Source: a virus (lineage: Duplodnaviria; Caudoviricetes). Taken from it: DNA of 64,000 nucleotides. Below the pieces are notes generated by a model. It did not search any database and was not told where the DNA came from. It worked only from the letters and a program-made list of their open reading frames with translations. Position numbers and translations under genes: made by a program. This document shows positions 5,359 through 58,822 of this stretch, piece after piece. Within the stretch, counting starts at the first letter, position 1; every line of letters starts with the position of its first letter. The stretch is taken from positions 1 to 64,000 of IMG/VR virus record IMGVR_UViG_3300037466_003369, one strand, 5' to 3'.

Positions 5359-5665
5359 TCTTAGACTGATTGAAAACCAACCTGTGATTGTTGAATAATC
5401 TCACAAATCGATCACAAAAACCACCAGGGGTTTAATCCCAGAACCCACTTTCCACTTACATAAACATCTCTTTTCTATCTTGCGTAAGGGATAATTAGAA
5501 AAAGAAATAAAGAAAAGAAGAGAAGGGGGAAGAGAGAAGATAAAGTAGGGGGAGTAGTACGATTTGAGATGTTTATGGAAGTCGGAGGAGGGTTCTCGGG
5601 ATTTAATCCCAGATGCGACATCCGGGCGCTTGCCAAGGCGCAGCTTTGCCGTGATCTTTCGGGCC
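5359..5665. other. AT-rich non-coding element with a long purine tract and flanking inverted repeats (candidate origin, pac or late-promoter region)
   Basis: Sharp GC drop; about 57-nt near-pure purine run 5497-5553; TTTAATCCCAGA at 5431 and 5602; GGGATT-T-AATCCC palindrome at 5598. Confidence 0.5.
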
Positions 5666-6286
5666 ATGGCGTGGCGGGCGATCTATGCGGAACCGAGGCG
5701 GGAGTTCGCGGCTCTCGCCGAACTGAGGCGATTGAGGGTGGGGTGCTTCTGCCCCTACGAGCTGGTCACCGAGCGCAAGCGCTGGCGGGGTGGCTGGCGG
5801 ATGGTGAGTGAGCCGCGACCCTACTTCCGAGGCTACCTGTTCGCCGACCTGGACCGGATGGTCTACACCGATCCCTGCAATGGCTCGCCGAGGCACGTCG
5901 AGAAACTGCCGGGTGTGATGGGAGTCGTTGGCAACGGGCGCGGGGAGCCGCTGGAGGTCCCGAAGCGCGATATCGATCTGCTCCTGGATGTCGCCGACGA
6001 GAACGGAATGATCTCGGCCATTGACGCCACACGGTTGAGCTACCGCTTCCGGGGCCGGGTGGGTGATGTGTTCGAGGTCATCGGGTGCGGCCTTGAGGGG
6101 GCCTGCGGCAAAATAGTCTCCTTGGACCGGCTTGACAGTAAGGGCGAGGTTCGTGCAATCGTGAAGTTCTTCGGGGCGGAACGTGAGATCGACGTCCCTT
6201 ATCAGAACGTGAGTAACATAAGGGCCGCAGTGGGCGGCGGATCGAATAGGGCCGGACGGTGCGACAAGCCGGTGGTTTTCCGGTAA
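5666..6286 (+). CDS. NusG-family transcription antitermination factor (NGN + KOW), specialised paralog
   Basis: WRAIYAEPRRE..A...L, PYFRGYLFA, LPGVMGVVG, then KOW-like VGDVFEVIGCGLEGACGKIV and VKFFGAEREIDVPYQNV. Confidence 0.85.
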   Translation: MAWRAIYAEPRREFAALAELRRLRVGCFCPYELVTERKRWRGGWRMVSEPRPYFRGYLFADLDRMVYTDPCNGSPRHVEKLPGVMGVVGNGRGEPLEVPKRDIDLLLDVADENGMISAIDATRLSYRFRGRVGDVFEVIGCGLEGACGKIVSLDRLDSKGEVRAIVKFFGAEREIDVPYQNVSNIRAAVGGGSNRAGRCDKPVVFR

Positions 6287-6402: not shown

Positions 6403-6858
6403 TTGGAGTGGTGTAAGGATTGCCCAAGGCACGAAGTTCTTGGCGGTTTGATCGATGCTCTTCGTAGAGACCTCAAGAAGCGTGATCTACGAATAGAGCA
6501 TCTGAATTCGCAAATTGCCGCTATGAAGCAAGGCCGCCTCATGAATGAGGCCGTCGATTATCCAGATAAAATTTATGTAATCGGCGCGATCAATCATGAT
6601 TTCGTTAAGATCGGCATCTCAGCGGATGTCGAGAAGCGTCTAAAGAGCCTCAAAAACCCTACCTCACATCCTGACGCAGATATTCAAAACTTAAGAATTT
6701 TCTTTCAAGAAACGATTGGTTTCGAGGCGCGAAAATTTGAGCGTTTCGTTCATCGTCAACTTCGTCAATTTCGAGCTAAAGGTGAGTGGTTCCGATTAGC
6801 CCCGGAAGAATCGGTCCAGGCTATCAAAAGCCTGTTGCGAGAATGGAAGTCGGTTTGA
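6403..6858 (+). CDS. T5orf172/MUG113-type GIY-YIG-like domain protein
   Basis: IYVIG...VKIGIS.DVEKRLKSL...FERFVHRQL...KGEWF; lower GC than neighbours; start uncertain (TTG 6403 or ATG 6541). Confidence 0.75.
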   Translation: MEWCKDCPRHEVLGGLIDALRRDLKKRDLRIEHLNSQIAAMKQGRLMNEAVDYPDKIYVIGAINHDFVKIGISADVEKRLKSLKNPTSHPDADIQNLRIFFQETIGFEARKFERFVHRQLRQFRAKGEWFRLAPEESVQAIKSLLREWKSV

Positions 6859-7082
6859 TGGCTCTTGACCCGATCACCGCCGACATGCTGGGGCCCGAGC
6901 TGGCCGAGGCGATCAACGCCGCGCACGCCAAGACCAAGGATGACACCATCACGGTTCGGATCGAACAGCATCCGGACACCAAGCTGCCGGGGGCGCACGT
7001 CGTTGCGCGCGGTGGCAACGACCTGCAGCACGGCATGAACGCTGAACGCGCGATCAAGTTCCTGAAGGGGTTGAAAAAGTGA
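6858..7082 (+). CDS. Hypothetical protein (74 aa)
   Basis: TGATG coupling to the upstream gene and GTGA overlap with terS. Confidence 0.6.
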   Translation: MALDPITADMLGPELAEAINAAHAKTKDDTITVRIEQHPDTKLPGAHVVARGGNDLQHGMNAERAIKFLKGLKK

Positions 7083-7621
7083 ACGCGCTGGTCCCGATGG
7101 GTCGCGCGACGCCGAATCCGCTGCGGAAGACAGAATTCAACTGGCTGGTCGCGAACGAGATCGTTGACCGGATCAGTGAAGGCGAATTCATGACTGACAT
7201 CCTGAAGGACGACCACATGCCGTCCTCCTGGACGATCAATCAGTGGATGCATGAATACCCCCAGTTCGCCTCGGATGTCGCGCAGGCGCGCGAGATGGGG
7301 GCCATGCACTGGCTTGAGCAGGCGACCAAGGTCGCCGTGACTCCGACCACCGCCGATAAGGTGGTCTATGGGGTCGATGGCGTGACGCTCACCCGCGAGG
7401 ACCCGGTGGCCGCGCGCAAGCTGGCGGCGTGGGGTCTGCAGGAGGCTGCGAAGCGTATCTGCCCGCAGAAGTACGGTGACAAGGTCGCCGTCACAGGCGG
7501 CTCCAAGGATGATAAGCCTGCGACGGTGCGCGTTGAGCATGAGCACACCCACGTGGTGAGGAAAGTTGAACGCGCCTTCCTTCAGCGGAGCCTTCCGGCC
7601 GAGAGCGATCCAGCCGCCTGA
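7079..7621 (+). CDS. terS: Terminase small subunit
   Basis: EIVDRISEGEFMTDILKDDHMPSSWTINQWM...F...VAQARE pattern of Sf6/P22-type TerS; directly upstream of TerL. Confidence 0.75.
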   Translation: MNALVPMGRATPNPLRKTEFNWLVANEIVDRISEGEFMTDILKDDHMPSSWTINQWMHEYPQFASDVAQAREMGAMHWLEQATKVAVTPTTADKVVYGVDGVTLTREDPVAARKLAAWGLQEAAKRICPQKYGDKVAVTGGSKDDKPATVRVEHEHTHVVRKVERAFLQRSLPAESDPAA

Positions 7622-8999
7622 GTGGCCGGACGTCGGCCTGGGCGAGGATGGCATCCTGCGGCTGCAGACGCCCGATGTCTTCCAGCCGCTCTTCGAGAAG
7701 GGTCCGAAGTACAAGGGCGCGCGCGGCGGTCGGGGCTCTGGGAAGAGCCATAACTTCGCCGAGATGCTGATCGAGGAGGCGATCTGCGACCCGTGGCTGC
7801 GGGCAGTGTGCATTCGGGAAATCCAGCGCACCCTCAAGCAGTCATCCAAGCGCCTGATCGAGGACAAGATCAGGAAGCTGCGCGTCCAGCGCTACTTCGA
7901 GAGCACCGACAAGGAAATCCACATCCTCGACGACGACGGCCAGCGCTGCGGCGTGGTCATCTTCGAGGGGATGCAGAACCACACCGCGGACTCGATCAAG
8001 TCCCTGGAGGGTTTCCGGATCGCCTGGGTGGAGGAGGCCCAGAACCTCAGCCAGCGGTCACTGGACCTGCTCTATCCGACCATCCGCGAGGCCGGCGGCG
8101 AAATCTGGTTCTCCTGGAACCCGAAGAGCCCCAAGGACCCGGTCGAGACGTTCATGACCGGCGCCGACGCGCAGGCCGATCCGAACATCATCACCGTTGA
8201 GGCCAACTACCACGATAACCCGTGGTTCTGGGCGACCGAGCTGGTCGACGACATGGAGCGTGACCGCAGACGCGATCCGGACAAGTACGCGCACATCTGG
8301 CTCGGCGCCTACCTGAAGCGCTCCGAGGCCACGGTGTTCAAGAACTGGCGCATCGCCGTGTTCGAGACCCCGGACGTGGTCGAGCGCTTCCTGTTCGGCG
8401 CCGACTGGGGCTTCAGCGTGGACCCCTCGGTCTTAGTCCGGGGCTTCCTGGGGCGGCTGATCGAGCGCGGCAAGGACGCCCACGGCAACGACGTGGTCGT
8501 GGCGATCCCCGACCAGCGCGGCAACACTCTCTTCATCGACGCCGAGGCCTACCGGGTCGGCTGCGAGATTGATTACCTGCCGGCCCTGTTCGCCGGCAAT
8601 GCGCCGCCCAAGCATGGGCGCGAGTGGGAGAACCCCTACGGCTGGCGCGGGATACCGGGAGCGCTGAGGTGGCCGATCACGGCCGACAGCGCCCGGCCCG
8701 AGACCATCAGCTACATGAAGCGCGCCGGCTTCAACATCCGACCGGCGGTCAAGGGGCCGGGCAGCATCGAGGACGGCATCGAGTTCCTGCGGAATTACGA
8801 TATCGTCGTGCTGCCGACCTGCGTCCACGTCATCGACGAGCTGAGCCTGTACTCCTACAAGGTCGACAAGATGACCGACGAGGTCCTCCCCGATCTGGAG
8901 GACAAGGACAACCACGTGATCGACGCCCTCCGTTACGCCGTGGAGGGCCAGCGACGCGGCGGCCTGCGGATCAGCGACGCGGTCCTGGCGAAGGTCTGA
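7566..8999 (+). CDS. terL: Terminase large subunit (PBSX/Terminase_3 type)
   Basis: GARGGRGSGKS, AVCIRE, IAWVEEA, FSWNP, GADWGF, DSARPE, DNHVIDALRY. Confidence 0.95.
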   Translation: MNAPSFSGAFRPRAIQPPEWPDVGLGEDGILRLQTPDVFQPLFEKGPKYKGARGGRGSGKSHNFAEMLIEEAICDPWLRAVCIREIQRTLKQSSKRLIEDKIRKLRVQRYFESTDKEIHILDDDGQRCGVVIFEGMQNHTADSIKSLEGFRIAWVEEAQNLSQRSLDLLYPTIREAGGEIWFSWNPKSPKDPVETFMTGADAQADPNIITVEANYHDNPWFWATELVDDMERDRRRDPDKYAHIWLGAYLKRSEATVFKNWRIAVFETPDVVERFLFGADWGFSVDPSVLVRGFLGRLIERGKDAHGNDVVVAIPDQRGNTLFIDAEAYRVGCEIDYLPALFAGNAPPKHGREWENPYGWRGIPGALRWPITADSARPETISYMKRAGFNIRPAVKGPGSIEDGIEFLRNYDIVVLPTCVHVIDELSLYSYKVDKMTDEVLPDLEDKDNHVIDALRYAVEGQRRGGLRISDAVLAKV

Positions 9000-9012: not shown

Positions 9013-9177
9013 ATGCCGAGCAAGTCTCCCGAGCAGCGGCGTCTGATGGCCGCCGCCGCGCATGATCCGAAGTTCGCGGCCAAGGTCGGCGTGCCGCAGA
9101 AGGTGGCCAAGGAGTTCAACCGCGCCGACCAGCACGAGGGCCAGGATCGGAGCTTCCAGAGGATCAAGGCCCTCTGA
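9013..9177 (+). CDS. Small basic phage protein (54 aa), not in the ORF track
   Basis: GGAGAG RBS; MPSKSPEQRRLMAAAAHDPKFAAKVGVPQKVAKEFNRADQHEGQDRSFQRIKAL; TGATG-coupled to the portal. Confidence 0.75.
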   Translation: MPSKSPEQRRLMAAAAHDPKFAAKVGVPQKVAKEFNRADQHEGQDRSFQRIKAL

Positions 9178-11873
9178 TGTGGCCCTTCCGGCGGGGGCCG
9201 GCGAAGCCGGCCGAACCCGCGAAGGCCGCCGAGCCGGCGCGCCCGGCCAAGCGGCGCATCAGCGACACCGCCATCGCCCGCGTCATGGAGCGGCGGCCGG
9301 GCGGCTTCATGCTGACGCCGCTGAGCGAGACCCCGCGCGTCGAGCGTCCTTTCGAGCCCGCCAAGCCGCTGACCAAGGACGCCCCGGAGATGGCCTTCGA
9401 CTCCGGCGTCGAGGACGTCTTCGCGCAGCTCAACTCGGCGACCTACAACTTTGGCGAAGGCATCGGCTTCATGGGCTACGGCTACTTGGCCGAGCTTGCC
9501 CAGCGCCCCGAGTACCGCCGCGGATGCGAGGTCTTGGCGCGGGAGATGACCCGCCGCTGGATCAAGCTGACCTACAACGGCGAGGAGGACGACATCGAGC
9601 CGGAGGCCGAGGGCGACGAGGAGGACGCCACGCCCGGCGAGGCCGACAAGGACGCCGAGCAACCTGAGCCCGAAGCGCAGAAGTCCGATGTCGATCCCGA
9701 ACGGGGTGATCCGCCGGGGATCGGGCACAACAAGCCGCCGCGTCCGGCCCGGAGGGTCAAGCCCAGCGACGAGAAGCTGAAGCGGATCGAGGCGGAGCTG
9801 AAGCGCCTGAAGGTGCGCGAGGCGTTCCGTCGCGTGGCCGAACTGGACGGCGTCTTCGGCCGTGGCCACATCTACCTGGACACCGGCGACACCGAAAAGC
9901 CGGATGAGCTGAAGACCCCGCTGACGGTCAGCAAGGTCAAGATCGGCCGGCGTAAGAAGCTGAAGCGCCTCGTCGTCGTCGAGCCGACCTGGACCTATCC
10001 GCAGAACTACGACAGTCGCGATCCGCTGAAGCCGGAGTTCTTCGAGCCGCAGAACTGGCTCGTGATGCAGAAGTCGGTCCACGCGAGCCGACTGCTGACC
10101 TTCGTGGGCCGCGAGGTCCCGGACATGTTGAAGCCGGCCTACTCGTTCGGCGGCCTCAGCCTGATCCAGATGGCCAAGCCGTACGTCGACAACTGGCTGC
10201 GCACCCGCCAGTCGGTCAGCGACATCCTGCACGCCTTCACCGTCTGGGTGGTGAAGACAGACCTCAACGACATCCTGAACGGCAGCGACGACGGCGATCA
10301 GGTCGTCCGGCGGGCCGAGCTGTTCAACCGGGTCCGCGACAACCGTGGCCTGATGATGGTCGACAAGGAGAGCGAGGACTTCGCCAACGTCGCGGCGCCG
10401 CTCGCCGGGCTCGATCATCTGCAGGCCCAGGCCCAGGAGCAGATGGCCAGCGTCTTCGCCATCCCGCTGGTGGTCCTGCTCGGCATCACGCCCTCCGGCC
10501 TGAACGCCTCCAGCGACGGCGAGATCAGGGTCTTCTACGACTTCATCCACGCCTTCCAGGAGCACCTGTTCGGCCACGCGCTGCACATCATCCTGAAGAT
10601 CGTGCAGCTCTCGCTGTTCGGGGAGATCGACGAGGACATCGGCTTCGAGTTCCTGCCCCTTTGGCAGCCGACCGAGACCGATCAGGCGACGATCCGCAAG
10701 ACCAACGCCGACATCGACAAGGCCTACATCGACGGGGGCGTGCTCGATCCCTCCGAGGTCCGCGAGAAGATCGCCAACGACAAGGACAGCCCCTACCAGA
10801 ACATCGACCCCGACGCCGTGCCGGAGCCGCCGCAACCGCCGGGCGGCGATCCCTTCGGCGCCGATCCGGATGGCGAGGGCGGCTCAGAGGACGATCCGGA
10901 CAGTGGCTTCCCGCCCTCGTCCGGCGGCGGCGAGCGCCGGCCCGCGGTCCCCAAGGCCGGCGGCAACCCCAAGCCGCCCGAGCGCCGTCCGGCCGGCGGC
11001 GATCCCAAGCCCCCGCGGGCCCAGGACGCCGCCTTCAGGGAACAGGACCATCCCCGTGGCCAGCCGGGCAACGCCGGCCAGTTCGGCCCCGGTGGTGGAA
11101 AGTCTAAGACCGAGGCTCCGAAGCCGAAGTCCAAGGAGAAGGAAGCGGCCAAGGCGGCGCAGGAGCCCGCCAGCCCCAGGGAGCGTCCGCCGTTCTCCGA
11201 GGAGGAGCTGTCCGGGCTGCCGCACGTCGATGAGATCGATCAGCCGACCACGTCCTGGGAGGAGCTGAAGACCAAGGGCGAGGAGGGCCGCGCCGCCTTC
11301 GTCGAGGCGCTCTCCGTCGTGGCTGACAAGCTGAGGCTGCGGACCGACGTGACGCTGCCCGAGCAGTTGACGCCCGAGGACCTGGAGAGCGGCGACAACT
11401 TCCTGTTCGTGGCGCCGAACAAGTCCGAGGCCCGAGCGCGGGCCAAGATCGAGAGCGACTATGGCGGCAACTGGTCAAAGCTGCGCGACATGGTCCGCGC
11501 CTCGATCACCGTGTCGTCGATGGATGAGCTGCGGGCGGCTGTGATCGCCGCCGAGGACGCGGGCCTAGCCCTGGCGGCCAAGCCCAAGGACCGCTTCACC
11601 AAGCCGACGCCCGAGGGCTACCGCGATCTCAACACCCTTGTGCGGCTGCCCAACGGCATGGTGGCCGAGCTGCAGTTCCACCTGACGCCGATCATCGCGG
11701 CCAAGAACGAGGGCCACGTCCACTACGAGGCGCAGCAGCGCCTGACCCGCAAGAACGGCATGGAGGAGCCGGACGACACGTGGTCGCTTGAGGACATCGA
11801 GCGGTTCACCCAGGCGCGCGAGCGGCAGCGTGAGCTGTACGGCGCGGCCTGGGAGAAGGCGACGAAGGCCTAG
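9177..11873 (+). CDS. Portal protein (DUF1073 type) with C-terminal RelA/SpoT-family alarmone synthetase domain
   Basis: Position after TerL; VHASRLL, AQAQEQMA...IPLVVLLGITPSGLNASSDGE..FYD portal motifs; C-terminal NKSEARARAK, LRDMVRASI, GYRDLN, AELQFH, HVHYE. Confidence 0.85.
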   Translation: MWPFRRGPAKPAEPAKAAEPARPAKRRISDTAIARVMERRPGGFMLTPLSETPRVERPFEPAKPLTKDAPEMAFDSGVEDVFAQLNSATYNFGEGIGFMGYGYLAELAQRPEYRRGCEVLAREMTRRWIKLTYNGEEDDIEPEAEGDEEDATPGEADKDAEQPEPEAQKSDVDPERGDPPGIGHNKPPRPARRVKPSDEKLKRIEAELKRLKVREAFRRVAELDGVFGRGHIYLDTGDTEKPDELKTPLTVSKVKIGRRKKLKRLVVVEPTWTYPQNYDSRDPLKPEFFEPQNWLVMQKSVHASRLLTFVGREVPDMLKPAYSFGGLSLIQMAKPYVDNWLRTRQSVSDILHAFTVWVVKTDLNDILNGSDDGDQVVRRAELFNRVRDNRGLMMVDKESEDFANVAAPLAGLDHLQAQAQEQMASVFAIPLVVLLGITPSGLNASSDGEIRVFYDFIHAFQEHLFGHALHIILKIVQLSLFGEIDEDIGFEFLPLWQPTETDQATIRKTNADIDKAYIDGGVLDPSEVREKIANDKDSPYQNIDPDAVPEPPQPPGGDPFGADPDGEGGSEDDPDSGFPPSSGGGERRPAVPKAGGNPKPPERRPAGGDPKPPRAQDAAFREQDHPRGQPGNAGQFGPGGGKSKTEAPKPKSKEKEAAKAAQEPASPRERPPFSEEELSGLPHVDEIDQPTTSWEELKTKGEEGRAAFVEALSVVADKLRLRTDVTLPEQLTPEDLESGDNFLFVAPNKSEARARAKIESDYGGNWSKLRDMVRASITVSSMDELRAAVIAAEDAGLALAAKPKDRFTKPTPEGYRDLNTLVRLPNGMVAELQFHLTPIIAAKNEGHVHYEAQQRLTRKNGMEEPDDTWSLEDIERFTQARERQRELYGAAWEKATKA

Positions 11874-12058
11874 TCGCCGCCCATCATCCTCTGGGCCTCG
11901 GCCTCGTCGATGATGTCGCCCCACTCGACGCCCTTGGGGACGTCGCCGGTGTAGGCCACGAACTTCTTCTCCGTGGGGGACCAGACCTCGCTGGGCCACG
12001 CGCGGGACCTCCCGCGGAACAGCGCCCCCTCGTTCTCGATGTAGATGAATTTGGCCAT
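11870..12058 (-). CDS. Small antisense protein (62 aa), candidate immunity/antitoxin for the portal synthetase domain
   Basis: MAKFIYIENEGALFRG...; GGAG RBS; own promoter at 12137-12168; stop codons overlap the portal stop. Function is inferred. Confidence 0.7.
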   Translation of the reverse strand: MAKFIYIENEGALFRGRSRAWPSEVWSPTEKKFVAYTGDVPKGVEWGDIIDEAEAQRMMGGD

Positions 12059-12136
12059 CGTCTTCTCCGGTTTGGGACCTCCCTTGTGATGTGCGGGTGA
12101 GCGCGGCGCAACGCGCATTCGCGGGCCCACGCTCCT

Positions 12137-12168
12137 CATATAGGCGACCTTGAAACAAAAAGGAAGTG
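12137..12168 (-). promoter_or_regulatory. Leftward promoter (repeated phage motif) inside the late operon
   Basis: CAC-TTCCTT-17 nt-TATATG; 5' part CACTTCCTTTTT identical to the copy at 58791-58822. Confidence 0.7.
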
Positions 12169-12171
12169 GAA

Positions 12172-12258
12172 ATGTTCCACACCCTCTGGATCATGGTCGC
12201 CGGCTGCATCGTCGGCTTCCAGGCCTTCGGATACCTGACCCTGTTCCGGGCGGCCTGA
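12172..12258 (+). CDS. Small single-TM peptide (28 aa)
   Basis: MFHTLWIMVAGCIVGFQAFGYLTLFRAA; AAGGAAG upstream; ends 4 nt before MuF. Confidence 0.4.
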   Translation: MFHTLWIMVAGCIVGFQAFGYLTLFRAA

Positions 12259-12262
12259 CCGG

Positions 12263-13063
12263 GTGTCCATCCACCATCGCCAGCGACAGGTGATCCTGCC
12301 GCGGGTGGTCCCGAACGCGGGACTGCAGGCCTACTACCGCAAGCGCCTCGACCGGCTGATCGAGGCCATGCACGACTCGGTCGCCTACTGGGTGGCGCAG
12401 GCCTATCGCGCCAATCCGCCGGAGATCGCCCAGGACGAGAGCCCGGCCATGGCCATGCGGCGGCTGATGCGCAAGCTGGCCAGTCGCTGGAACCGCGAGT
12501 TCGACAAGCTGGCCAGGAAGCTCTCGCCCGAGTTCGTGCGCCGCAACGGCCGGATGAGCGACACCCAGTTCATGGAGCACCTCAAGGCGGCCGGCTTCAC
12601 CGTGGAATTCTCCGTCAGCCGGCAGGTCAACGACGTGATGCAGGCGGCCATCGGCGAGAACGTGGCGCTCATCAAGTCGATCCCGCAGCAGTACCTGACC
12701 CAGGTGGAGGGCATGGTCCTGCGCTCGGTGCAGGCCGGACGCGACCTCTCCACCCTGTCGAAGGACCTGCAGCACCAGTACGGCGTCACGCGCCGCCGCG
12801 CGGCCTTCATTGCCAGGGATCAGAACAACAAGACCACCTCCGCGATCTATCGCGCTCGACAGCTCGAACTCGATATCGACGAGGCCATCTGGCACCACAG
12901 CCACGCAGGCAAGACGCCGAGGCCTAGCCACGTCGCCAACAACGGCAAGACCTACAAGGTCTCCGAGGGCTGGTACGACCCGGACCTGAAGAAGCGTATC
13001 TGGCCCGGCACGGAACCGAACTGCAGATGTACAGCCAAGTCGATCATTCGAGGGTTCATGTGA
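12263..13063 (+). CDS. MuF/SPP1 gp7-family head morphogenesis protein
   Basis: RAAFIARDQNNK, AIWHHS, WPGTEPNCRCTA. Confidence 0.9.
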   Translation: MSIHHRQRQVILPRVVPNAGLQAYYRKRLDRLIEAMHDSVAYWVAQAYRANPPEIAQDESPAMAMRRLMRKLASRWNREFDKLARKLSPEFVRRNGRMSDTQFMEHLKAAGFTVEFSVSRQVNDVMQAAIGENVALIKSIPQQYLTQVEGMVLRSVQAGRDLSTLSKDLQHQYGVTRRRAAFIARDQNNKTTSAIYRARQLELDIDEAIWHHSHAGKTPRPSHVANNGKTYKVSEGWYDPDLKKRIWPGTEPNCRCTAKSIIRGFM

Positions 13064-13233
13064 TGCCGGACGAGAGAGACGCGCCGATGTTCCTTTATCG
13101 CGGCCCGAAGGCGGACGACGACTGGACGCCGCCGACCTTCGGCATGGGCGTGGTCATCGGGGTGCTCGGCGGCCTCGTCGTCGCCGCCCTGATCAGCGCC
13201 GTCGTCACGCTGCCCTGGACCTACCTTGGCTGA
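13063..13233 (+). CDS. Small membrane protein (56 aa)
   Basis: TGATG-coupled to MuF; hydrophobic [24 protein letters not shown]. Confidence 0.55.
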
Positions 13234-15076
13234 CGGCGCCGGCGTCATGCTGCAGGCGCCGGGCAACCGGCTCCTCGTCCTGCGGCGTAGTCAGGAGAGC
13301 GATCATCCGGGGACCTACTGCTTCCCCGGCGGCGGCGTGGAGGAGGGCGAGACCTACGAGGACGCCGCGCGTCGCGAGCTGCACGAGGAGACCGGCTTCG
13401 ACTACCAGGGGCCACTCGCGCAGGTCGACGACCGCGATGGCTTCGTCACCTTCCGCGCCGAGCTGCCCGAGGAATTTGATCCCGAGCTGAACGACGAGCA
13501 CACCGAGGCCCGCTGGATCGAGCCTGGCGAGCACGACGCGGAGCCGCTGCATCCCGGCGTCAGGGCCACCCTCAGTGAGATGGGCTTCGCCATGGATCAA
13601 TCCATCCGCAAGCGCGCGCTCGCCTTCGACCGCGCCACGGTTCGCTCCTTCACCGTGGACGGCCGGCTGCAGGTCGAGCTGAACCCGATCTCCAAGGCCA
13701 ACGTCTGCCCCTACTACGGCGAGGAGATTCCGGACCACGAGAAGCTCGGTCTGGACCCTAAGCGCGTCTACATGCTGCTGCGCGATCCGGAGGAACTGGC
13801 CAAGGCGGCGGAGACCTTCAATGGCGTCCCGCTGCTGCTGATCCACAAGCCCTCCACCGCGGACGAGCACCCGCGCGAGCTGACCATCGGGACCACCGGC
13901 ACGGACGCCGCCTGGGAGGACCCGTACCTCAAAAACACCCTCGTGGTCTGGGACGCCGAGGGTATCGAGGCCATCGAATCCGACGAGCAGAAAGAGCTGT
14001 CGTCCGGCTACCGCTACCGCGCCGACATGACCCCCGGCGTGTTCAACGGCGAGAACTACGACGGGGTCATGCGGGACATCGTCGGAAACCACGTCGCCCT
14101 CGTCGAGGAGGGCCGCGCAGGACCCGACGTTGTCGTTGGCGATTCCAAACCAAGGAACCTCATGATGAAGATCAAGACTGCCGCGCTGCCGTCTCGGAAG
14201 GCCCTGCTTGTCCAGGGCGCCGTGGCGGCGGTCCTCGCGCCGATGATCGCCCAGGATGCCAAGCTCATCGACCTGGGCGGGGTGTTCAAGGGCGTCAACC
14301 GGAAGAACTACGCCGCCCAGCGGGACAACATCGTCTCGCGCCTGAAGCTGGCCACCGACAAGCGTCTGGCCAAGGACGCCGACTTGGAGGACGTGGTCGC
14401 CGTGATCGACGCCCTGAAGGGCGTCAACGGCGGCGACGCCGACGAGGACGACGTCACCATCGATGCCGATCTCGTGCCCGGAGCCGCCGACCCGGCCGAT
14501 CCGGAGAAGACCAATCCGGGCGTCTCCGGCGAGGACGAGGAGGAGGGCGGCCACGAGGCCTTCATGGCCAAGCTGAAGGCCAAGCTGGACGACGCCACCT
14601 ACGCCAAGGTGGTCTCGGCCATGTCCCCGTCCGCCGCCCCCGCGCAGGGCGCGACCGACGAGGAGAAAGACAAGAACGAGGAGCCCGGCGCCGAGGACGA
14701 GGAGGGACCCGAGAAGAAGCCCGAATTCGTCTCCAAGGGCGCGATGGACAAGGCCATCAACGCGGCCTCCGCCAAGGCGGTCAAGGACACCATCACGCGC
14801 CTCGCCGCCGTCCGCGAGGCGGAGAACATCTGTCGCCCGCACATCGGCGAGCTGGCCATCGCCATGGACTCCGCGGAGGCCGTCTACAAGCACACGCTGC
14901 AGACGGTCTGCCCCGACCGCGACCTCACCGGCATCCACCCCAGCGCCTTCCGGGCCATGGTGGAGATGCTCCCCACGGGCTCCGAGCCCAAGACCCCGCG
15001 GCTCGCCCAGGACGCCAAGAAGGCCAAGGCCTTCGAAGAGCGCTACCCCGGCGCCGACCGCATCAAGAGCCTTTAA
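13226..15076 (+). CDS. Nudix hydrolase fused to DUF2213 head maturation protease/scaffold protein
   Basis: Complete Nudix box [23 protein letters not shown] (13331-13399); DUF2213 motifs [29 protein letters not shown]; acidic/helical scaffold-like tail. Confidence 0.9.
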
Positions 15077-58790: not shown

Positions 58791-58822
58791 AAGATAGGCG
58801 CTCCTGAAAGAAAAAGGAAGTG
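58791..58822 (-). promoter_or_regulatory. Leftward promoter (repeated phage motif)
   Basis: CAC-TTCCTT-17 nt-TATCTT; a possible divergent TTGAAC-17-CATCGT at about 58834 faces the tRNA. Confidence 0.75.

Follow-up and report, generated by a model that had tools for sequence, protein, structure and literature searches.

The window analysed here is a stretch of 64,000 nucleotides, positions 1 to 64,000 of the IMG/VR virus record IMGVR_UViG_3300037466_003369 (72,275 bases, rated 100% complete by CheckV), which represents a soil/rhizosphere phage. Its portal protein gene encodes an unusually composed product, in which a portal domain is joined through a long linker to a RelA/SpoT-family synthetase domain of the toxin type. 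This gene is followed, on the opposite strand, by a gene for a protein of 62 amino acids (aa) that is likely the immunity partner of the synthetase. The features on which the argument depends are as follows (window coordinates; residue numbers are those of the 898-aa portal-synthetase protein).

9177-11873, plus strand: gene of the portal-synthetase fusion (898 aa); no second portal gene was found in the record
9372-10883, plus strand: portal domain of the DUF1073/Phage_portal_3 type, aa 66-569 (Pfam, PHROG 146)
10830-11273, plus strand: low-complexity Pro/Gly/charged linker, aa 552-699 (148 aa), delimited by composition
11019-11099, plus strand: junction motif A-Q-D-A-A-F-x-E-x-x-HPR-G-Q-P-G-N-A-G-Q-F-G-x-GGG, aa 615-641, shared by each of the 13 portal-synthetase fusions that were aligned
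11274-11870, plus strand: RelA/SpoT-homolog (RSH) synthetase domain of the Tas1/Apk type, aa 700-898 (Tas1 sequence and fold matches)
11870-12058, minus strand: candidate immunity gene, 62 aa, convergent with the portal gene with overlapping stop codons, and with a GGAG ribosome-binding site
12137-12168, minus strand: promoter-like element CACTTCCTTTTT..N..TATATG, 5′ of the immunity gene, with the same element before four minus-strand units

The open reading frame (ORF) at 9177-11873 is uninterrupted in the ORF list and translation, and its start is conserved, with a 64%-identical homolog aligning from residue 1. The gene order is small terminase (7079-7621), large terminase (TerL, 7566-8999) and portal-synthetase. 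The product matches PF06381 (Phage_portal_3) over aa 197-515 (4.4e-87; 292.5 bits, threshold 33.8) and PHROG 146 (“portal protein”) over aa 66-569 (4.9e-110). PF06381 matches this gene alone in the 72,275-base record, and the PF04860 portal family has no match there. The first-pass annotation, made from the letters alone, had described an 898-aa ORF in the portal slot, with a portal domain followed by a Pro/Gly/acidic linker, and both descriptions are borne out: the linker (aa 552-699) contains 19% Pro and 15% Gly, only 8% hydrophobic residues, and 80% P/G/A/E/D/K/S/Q. A second stretch of biased composition lies within the portal region itself, where a strongly acidic, Pro-rich insertion (9579-9761, approximately aa 135-195) divides the Pfam match in two; several relatives lack this insertion.

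The C-terminal domain contains the five segments NKSEARARAK, LRDMVRASI, GYRDLN, AELQFH and HVHYE, in this order. The first-pass annotation had listed these synthetase motifs and assigned them to a domain of ~130 aa; the motifs stand as written, while the extent does not, the fold spanning approximately aa 700-898 when its flanking helices are included. Residues K749, R753, K757, D771, R774, G814-Y815-R816-D817, E831, Q833, H847 and Y850 are invariant in alignments of 24 and of 81 homologs, and because these residues define the active site, the domain looks catalytically active. The domain, modelled by AlphaFold2 from the family alignment, reaches a mean predicted local distance difference test score (pLDDT) of 97.1, and the best match of this model by Foldseek against the PDB is Tas1 (2.1e-8), followed by RelQ, RelP, SaEAS (a Streptomyces exported synthetase), Rel and RelA, so that structure prediction of aa 700-898 agrees with the family first suggested for it. 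Foldseek returns 58 matches at E ≤0.001, of which the best 26 are all RSH synthetases. The sequence comparisons point the same way. In a single-sequence phmmer search against all PDB chains Tas1 (6OX6) ranks first (2e-5), and with a profile of 81 family members it is again first (7.4e-17), followed by SaEAS (3.7e-5) and YwaC; the domain is ~21% identical to Tas1. There is also a weak match to the C-terminus of XopAD (0.0034), and PHROGs has no family for the domain. We conclude that it is a monofunctional RelA/SpoT-family synthetase of the toxin type, with Tas1/Apk1 as its nearest solved relative. The products of characterised relatives are (p)ppApp, (p)ppGpp or both (PMC12691689), and the present domain probably makes (p)ppApp and/or (p)ppGpp.

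The family to which the domain belongs is large, with 1,952 cluster representatives at E ≤0.001. Its proteins vary from 118 to 3,127 residues and carry the domain mostly at the C-terminus, which is the pattern of a polymorphic toxin domain. Among the 162 best representatives, a DUF1073 portal precedes the synthetase domain in 18, and in three of the 18 an InPase domain lies between the two. The synthetase domains of the portal-fusion relatives are 44-72% identical to that in the window, and on a tree of the synthetase domain 17 of the 18 portal forms fall into one clade of 33 rows (SH-aLRT ≥95). The tree as a whole requires at least nine switches of architecture, with the proviso that some short non-portal rows may be gene fragments. 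IMG/VR contains further copies of the fusion, two of them 98% identical and from other samples, and one 37% identical. The stretch or its close relatives are present in soil and rhizosphere metagenomes from ~15 studies, although five rows may be the source sample itself. The fusion is therefore no assembly artefact, since the same architecture occurs in many independent assemblies; it is real, long-established and maintained. To date it is known from uncultured phages only: none of 50,697 GenBank phage records contains it, and tblastn of the toxin domain against GenBank phages yields nothing beyond the Bordetella phage PHB04, described below. Among species-representative bacterial genomes there are two distant non-portal relatives only, one in Oxalobacteraceae and one in a metagenome-assembled genome of Propionivibrio. 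The first-pass annotation had known of no characterised portal-borne synthetase, and none appeared in the GenBank phage records or in the literature searched.

The 62-aa gene sits between the portal-synthetase gene and the gene of the MuF head protein. Its product belongs to a family of 48 homolog clusters that has no Pfam match (50 members searched, E up to 1) and no sequence match in the PDB; the protein itself has no PHROG family. When profiles of both families were applied to 46 fetched loci, the small gene was found directly after the synthetase gene in 37, and the remaining loci are mostly cut off at contig ends or belong to the most distant relatives. Downstream of the portal fusions, and of a NUDIX-synthetase fusion (L001), the small gene is convergent. 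After non-portal forms of the synthetase, which are ~490 aa long and lie directly behind a PF04860 portal gene, it is instead co-directional, and in most cases a gene for an HD_4 alarmone hydrolase then follows.

A model of the complex between the synthetase domain and the 62-aa protein scored 0.75, whereas the best of three controls scored 0.01. The mark used for such scores is reached by 58 of 80 solved complexes and by two of 110 mismatched pairs. The runs share at least 10% of their contacts, with a pLDDT of at least 59 for the partner, although one of the three runs scored 0.00. The confident predicted contacts are to Y815, D817, E831, K843, Y850 and E851 of the portal protein, which together form the acceptor-site and catalytic face, and the model thus supports binding of the small protein over the active site. 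This pass may in part mirror likeness to a known case, because the Tas1-Tis1 complex has been solved. The 62-aa protein alone is modelled with a pLDDT of 88. Foldseek finds no significant PDB match for this model; VIA-align places Tis1 (6ox6_B) third of 48,161 chains (Z 3.6, root-mean-square deviation 4.0 Å over 56 residues), tied with Sm-like and SH3-like barrels. In the ESM Atlas, a neighbouring cluster (score 0.83) has PF24154 (Tis1_ImmP) in 11% of its members, which is a weak lead only. Kinship with Tis1 is thus possible. Taken together, the conserved position beside the synthetase, the modelled placement over its active site and the minus-strand promoter class described below make it likely that the 62-aa gene is the immunity gene for the synthetase.

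The non-portal arrangement is represented by one isolate, Bordetella phage vB_BbrM_PHB04 (NC_047861; locus L010, 6212-8477), in which gp35 (portal), gp34, gp33 and gp32 (“metal-dependent phosphohydrolase”) are contiguous. Protein gp34 is ~490 aa long, with a C-terminal synthetase domain 51% identical to that of the window, gp33 is a homolog of the 62-aa protein, and gp32 is the HD protein. The gp34-gp33-gp32 triad stands directly after the portal gene and is unannotated as such. Judging by the alignment consensus, the N-terminal part of the gp34 type seems to include two repeated segments, and PHROGs has no family for the N-terminal parts of the ~490-aa forms. We considered whether these forms are Apk2 proteins, but comparison of their N-terminal parts with the MuF profile was negative (hhalign probability 0.1), and for this reason we do not call them Apk2. 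The HD protein of the sister loci matches MESH1/HDDC3 and Rel hydrolase domains generally, which does not distinguish (p)ppApp from (p)ppGpp. In two more distant portal-synthetase phages (L011, 8346-10982, and L012, 7539-9746), the convergent immunity gene heads a block of six to eight small minus-strand genes, including one for a DUF3560 protein, between the portal and MuF genes; this block looks like a moron island at the portal-MuF position.

The small gene has a promoter-like element of its own. The sequence CACTTCCTTTTTGTTTCAAGGTCGCCTATATG lies upstream of it on the same strand, and near-identical elements precede minus-strand units at 58822, 51749, 47643 and 44765, each with a GGAG-type ribosome-binding site and start codon downstream. 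A scan of 11700-12400 for consensus sigma-70 sequences found no promoter, and the element emerged only by comparison within the phage. The phage may use a promoter class of its own, because the element is unlike the sigma-70 consensus. By this element, the small gene would belong to the predicted promoter class of the minus-strand, replication-side genes and not to that of the surrounding plus-strand head operon. The minus-strand units are presumed to be early, based on their position. A shared form of the element, CACTT[CT]CTTTTT..N..TAT, can be written for the sites at 58822, 51749, 47643, 44765 and 12168, all on the minus strand, and possibly for a further site at 728. Contigs of four sequencing runs match in fragments only. 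One of these, a contig of 156 bases from a rhizosphere metatranscriptome library, covers 12006-12149, corresponding to the start and leader of the immunity gene, and the rest of a 1.5-kb stretch is unseen in that assembly. We do not take this contig as expression because DNA carry-over is possible and the contig extends 5′ of the predicted -10 box.

The linker contains a conserved segment that links the synthetase fusions to other portal proteins. The motif A-x-D-[AS]-[AG]-x-[FW]-x-E-x-x-H-P-R, followed by a short spacer, G-x-F and a run of Gly, is present in each of the 13 portal fusions aligned and also in the NUDIX-synthetase fusion. Since it recurs ahead of modules in other long IMG/VR portal ORFs, it marks module boundaries, and we read it as a putative processing or module-boundary site. 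One such ORF, in IMGVR_UViG_3300050821_011222 (L047, 1-5658), is a single frame of 1,886 aa that is open across the locus and at both ends. Its modules are a DUF1073 portal, a NUDIX domain and Acb1, an anti-CBASS protein family (3e-37), and the junction motif occurs three times between modules, with one copy ahead of each further module; it appears to be a portal carrying a known counter-defence enzyme. In a second case (IMGVR_UViG_3300046462_001109; L039, 761-5005), a 1,415-aa portal ORF has a DUF7178 region after the junction motif. The portal C-termini in this phage group are thus a general cargo platform, with NUDIX, Acb1, InPase and DUF7178 among the passengers.

The start of the junction motif overlaps the tripeptide A-[FMQ]-D, which is itself unevenly distributed. 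The portal, MuF, scaffold and capsid proteins together contain 10 copies, where composition would predict 1.5, and a set of 12 other proteins (~5,500 residues in total) contains one. Its sites include aa 69 of the capsid protein, where the family-profile match starts and the propeptide boundary lies, and aa 122 of the scaffold, at the boundary between its NUDIX and DUF2213 parts; it is found at equivalent boundaries in related phages. A further copy, A-F-D, is at aa 73-75 of the portal. The related Pseudomonas phage Pa193 retains its DUF2213 protein, the scaffold gp24, inside the virion, and the first 93 residues of its portal are absent from both the map and mass spectrometry, for which the authors suggest possible cleavage (PMC11456595). 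Release of the cargo by proteolysis inside the head would fit these observations.

Two further features of the head operon bear on the question of cargo.

12263-13063, plus strand: MuF head protein, 266 aa (PF04233 at aa 147-258, PHROG 324)
13226-13630, plus strand: NUDIX domain at the N-terminus of a DUF2213 (Pa193 gp24-type) internal scaffold (PF00293, 5.7e-21; PF09979, 2.3e-50)

The NUDIX-DUF2213 fusion gene as a whole spans 13226-15076, and its NUDIX domain is a putative second head cargo. The domain matches generic MutT/NudI-type enzymes, which gives no clue to the substrate. In L001 the synthetase carries a directly fused NUDIX domain, and in L002, another portal-synthetase phage, the NUDIX domain is absent from the scaffold; the link between NUDIX and synthetase is therefore facultative.

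The domain identities, the catalytic residues, the conserved gene pair, the promoter class and the recurrence of the fusion are results of the present analysis, and we propose a mechanism that would accommodate them. The sole portal protein bears, on a flexible linker, an apparently intact nucleotide 3′-pyrophosphokinase toxin domain of the Tas1/Apk type, and this domain would enter the procapsid with the portal in up to 12 copies, the portal acting as a loading module as MuF does for Apk2. Portal C-termini face the capsid interior. Since the domain is covalently linked to every portal subunit and these C-termini face inside, it should be present in the head. The junction motif is probably a cut site that would free the cargo during head maturation, and the cut cargo could exit with the DNA. 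In the new host, the enzyme would convert ATP, and possibly GTP, to (p)ppApp/(p)ppGpp, causing an abrupt arrest of growth and metabolism or disturbing a defence system. The 62-aa protein, expressed from its own promoter of the minus-strand class, would bind the acceptor and active sites and silence the enzyme, and would thereby both end the incoming pulse and shield the producing cell during late portal synthesis. In its general form, in which a portal-borne Tas1/Apk-like toxin is loaded into the head, is possibly freed and ejected, and is quenched by the 62-aa protein, we give this reading a probability of about 0.6; the packaging topology, cleavage, ejection, product and physiological purpose of the domain are what we infer within it. 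A more specific version is tentative and rather doubtful as a whole: a timed release, in which 12 toxin copies are cut at the junction motif and ejected, the pulse arrests the host or blinds its defences, and the 62-aa inhibitor then quenches it, with the motif serving as a general “cargo cassette” signal for NUDIX, Acb1, InPase and synthetase domains on portals and scaffolds.

Several points weigh against the proposed loading and release. The domain’s own score for PF04607 (RelA_SpoT) is 16.2 bits (E 0.013), below the gathering score of 27, so that its membership by hidden Markov model rests on its relatives: 13 of 24 close homologs match at E ≤0.001 and two exceed the gathering score (31.2 and 27.7 bits). 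The PF04607 search proposed in the first-pass annotation thus scores below threshold for the protein itself, and the sequence and fold matches to Tas1 add support to the assignment. The sequence does not decide which product the synthetase makes, and the HD hydrolase found with the non-portal forms is missing from the portal forms. Unless it is cleaved, a domain tethered to the portal has no way into the host cytoplasm, and no protease can be confidently named, DUF2213 being a “head maturation protease” in PHROG and a scaffold in the Pa193 paper. An immunity protein that stayed bound and was co-packaged would leave the delivered enzyme inert, and an alarmone burst could harm the phage’s own replication.

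The strongest competitor, which we regard as unlikely though worth serious consideration, is that the synthetase acts only in the producing cell, late and before assembly, in host shutdown, lysis timing or superinfection exclusion, with the immunity protein tuning its activity and the copies in the capsid never being released. Twelve tethered copies have no evident exit unless they are cleaved, and the cleavage is itself inferred; an immunity gene with its own promoter would equally suit the control of an intracellular enzyme, and a cytoplasmic action of the T7 portal protein on RelA and SpoT has been reported (bioRxiv 10.64898/2026.01.27.700999). For such a role, however, a free-standing gene would do equally well, yet the cargo is found repeatedly on the portal C-terminus, on the scaffold N-terminus, or in the slot right after the portal gene. 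The repetition of the conserved junction motif between cargo modules and the presence of Acb1 on related portals likewise argue for loading into the head.

Delivery might also serve a different chemistry. The fold of the domain is shared with FaRel2, PhRel2 and CapRel, toxins that pyrophosphorylate the 3′-CCA end of tRNA, and CapRel itself is among the Foldseek matches (rank 46, 1.2e-4); a direct stop of translation by this route is nevertheless improbable, as the nearest characterised protein by both sequence and fold is Tas1, a (p)ppApp synthetase, and the next are nucleotide-forming small alarmone synthetases and SaEAS. The HD genes of the sister loci do not discriminate between the two chemistries, because small alarmone hydrolases can reportedly also detoxify the tRNA-modifying toxSAS enzymes.

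Slightly less probable again is that the system is an interbacterial or interphage weapon, a polymorphic toxin in the strict sense, which is released at lysis or delivered by particles while the immunity protein protects kin. This is among the roles proposed for MuF toxins (PMC10083569), and a toxin-plus-immunity layout is typical of such systems. Here, however, no tyrosine or serine integrase was found in the complete-rated 72,275-base record and the sister arrangement occurs in the isolated phage PHB04, so there is no sign of a lysogen with standing immunity; moreover, the immunity gene shares the phage promoter class of the minus-strand, replication-side genes. That the fusion arose as an error of assembly or gene calling, or that the domain is a decaying remnant, hardly needs to be entertained, for although this is a metagenomic assembly with a low-complexity linker, the same single ORF recurs in many independent assemblies and studies, the catalytic residues are invariant, and the cognate small gene is conserved alongside.

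The closest precedent for toxin loading via the portal is Apk2. RelA/SpoT toxin domains on MuF were predicted in 2012 and 2017 (PMC3482391, PMC5512222), and MuF-fused RelA/SpoT toxins have since been characterised as Apk2, which are (p)ppApp synthetases with IapK/Tis1-like and Aph1 immunity proteins (PMC10083569, PMC12226406). As in Apk2, the toxin stands at the C-terminus of a phage head-morphogenesis protein with a small, non-enzymatic immunity gene adjoining, and the Apk2-IapK-Aph1 triad (PMC10083569, PMC12226406) is mirrored by the non-portal sister loci, including PHB04, with a toxin, a binding immunity protein and an HD hydrolase as third member. The carrier here, however, is a PF06381 portal; MuF is the next plus-strand gene and is unextended, as the first-pass annotation had noted, with PF04233 ending at aa 258 of 266 and thus leaving no room for a toxin extension. 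The portal forms also lack an HD/Aph1 gene (the absence of a hydrolase domain, claimed earlier for the ORF, extends to the 72,275-base record, which has no HD_4 match), and their immunity gene is convergent with its own promoter. In addition, Apk2 is described as tied to temperate phages, whereas no integrase was found here. Tas1/Apk1-Tis1 (PDB 6OX6), the nearest solved relative of the domain, is a type VI secretion (p)ppApp synthetase effector with its immunity protein. The likeness extends to a small immunity protein, predicted here to cover the active site, although the structural resemblance to Tis1 is weak and not significant. There is no PAAR/Rhs or type VI secretion context, Pfam showing portal and RelA_SpoT only, within a phage head operon. 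With two Apk2 features (MuF carrier, Aph1) and one Apk1 feature (PAAR/type VI secretion) lacking, the portal-synthetase would function like Apk1/Apk2 yet belongs to neither class.

Portal fusions to enzymes are not new in themselves. Iyer et al. 2017 (PMC5512222) describes in silico the fusion of portals to InPase, PBECR and 2H, and predicts that enzymes fused to portal or MuF are packaged and injected; the portals with InPase plus synthetase, NUDIX plus Acb1, and DUF7178 reported here are of the same kind, and the novelty of the portal-synthetase is lowered accordingly. In the text consulted, the paper names RelA/SpoT on MuF and in polyvalent proteins, not on portals, and contains no immunity partner or junction motif. 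The exported alarmone synthetases (EAS) and the Rel-like XopAD protein (PMC12691689) similarly place a toxin-type synthetase on varied N-terminal trafficking domains. The carriers in that 2025 survey (PMC12691689) are Sec, LXG, XopAD, MuF, DUF4157 and Rhs/PAAR, with no portal, and the present domain is closer to Tas1 than to SaEAS. The literature searched contains no account of a portal-borne synthetase, the 62-aa immunity family or the junction motif. According to a 2026 preprint (bioRxiv 10.64898/2026.01.27.700999), RelA and SpoT are bound and inhibited by the portals of T7 and other coliphages, which ties portals to alarmone control in the opposite direction.

The Apk2 papers pose the packaging and injection of head-borne toxins, and their purpose, as an open question (PMC10083569). 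A toxin held covalently on an obligatory portal of fixed copy number makes for a cleaner test than one on low-copy MuF: it can hardly be absent from the head, the stoichiometry is given, and a cleavage site is predicted. An inhibitor with a promoter of the presumed-early class suggests a pulse-then-quench logic for host takeover, and the repeated junction motif, together with Acb1, NUDIX and InPase on related portals, points to modular virion loading of counter-defence enzymes. The cultured phage PHB04, with its gp34-gp32 triad, is a system in which this biology could be tested.

Downstream of the fusion, MuF (12263-13063) is followed by NUDIX-DUF2213 (13226-15076), a cement protein, the major capsid protein and a contractile-tail module. 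Just 5′ of the terminase genes are genes for a NusG-like protein (PF02357) and a T5orf172/MUG113-type endonuclease-like protein (5564-6286 and 6403-6858). Between the immunity promoter and MuF, a 28-aa hydrophobic ORF (MFHTLWIMVAGCIVGFQAFGYLTLFRAA; 12172-12258, plus strand) is preceded by AAGGAAG; it may encode a small membrane peptide or have arisen by chance.

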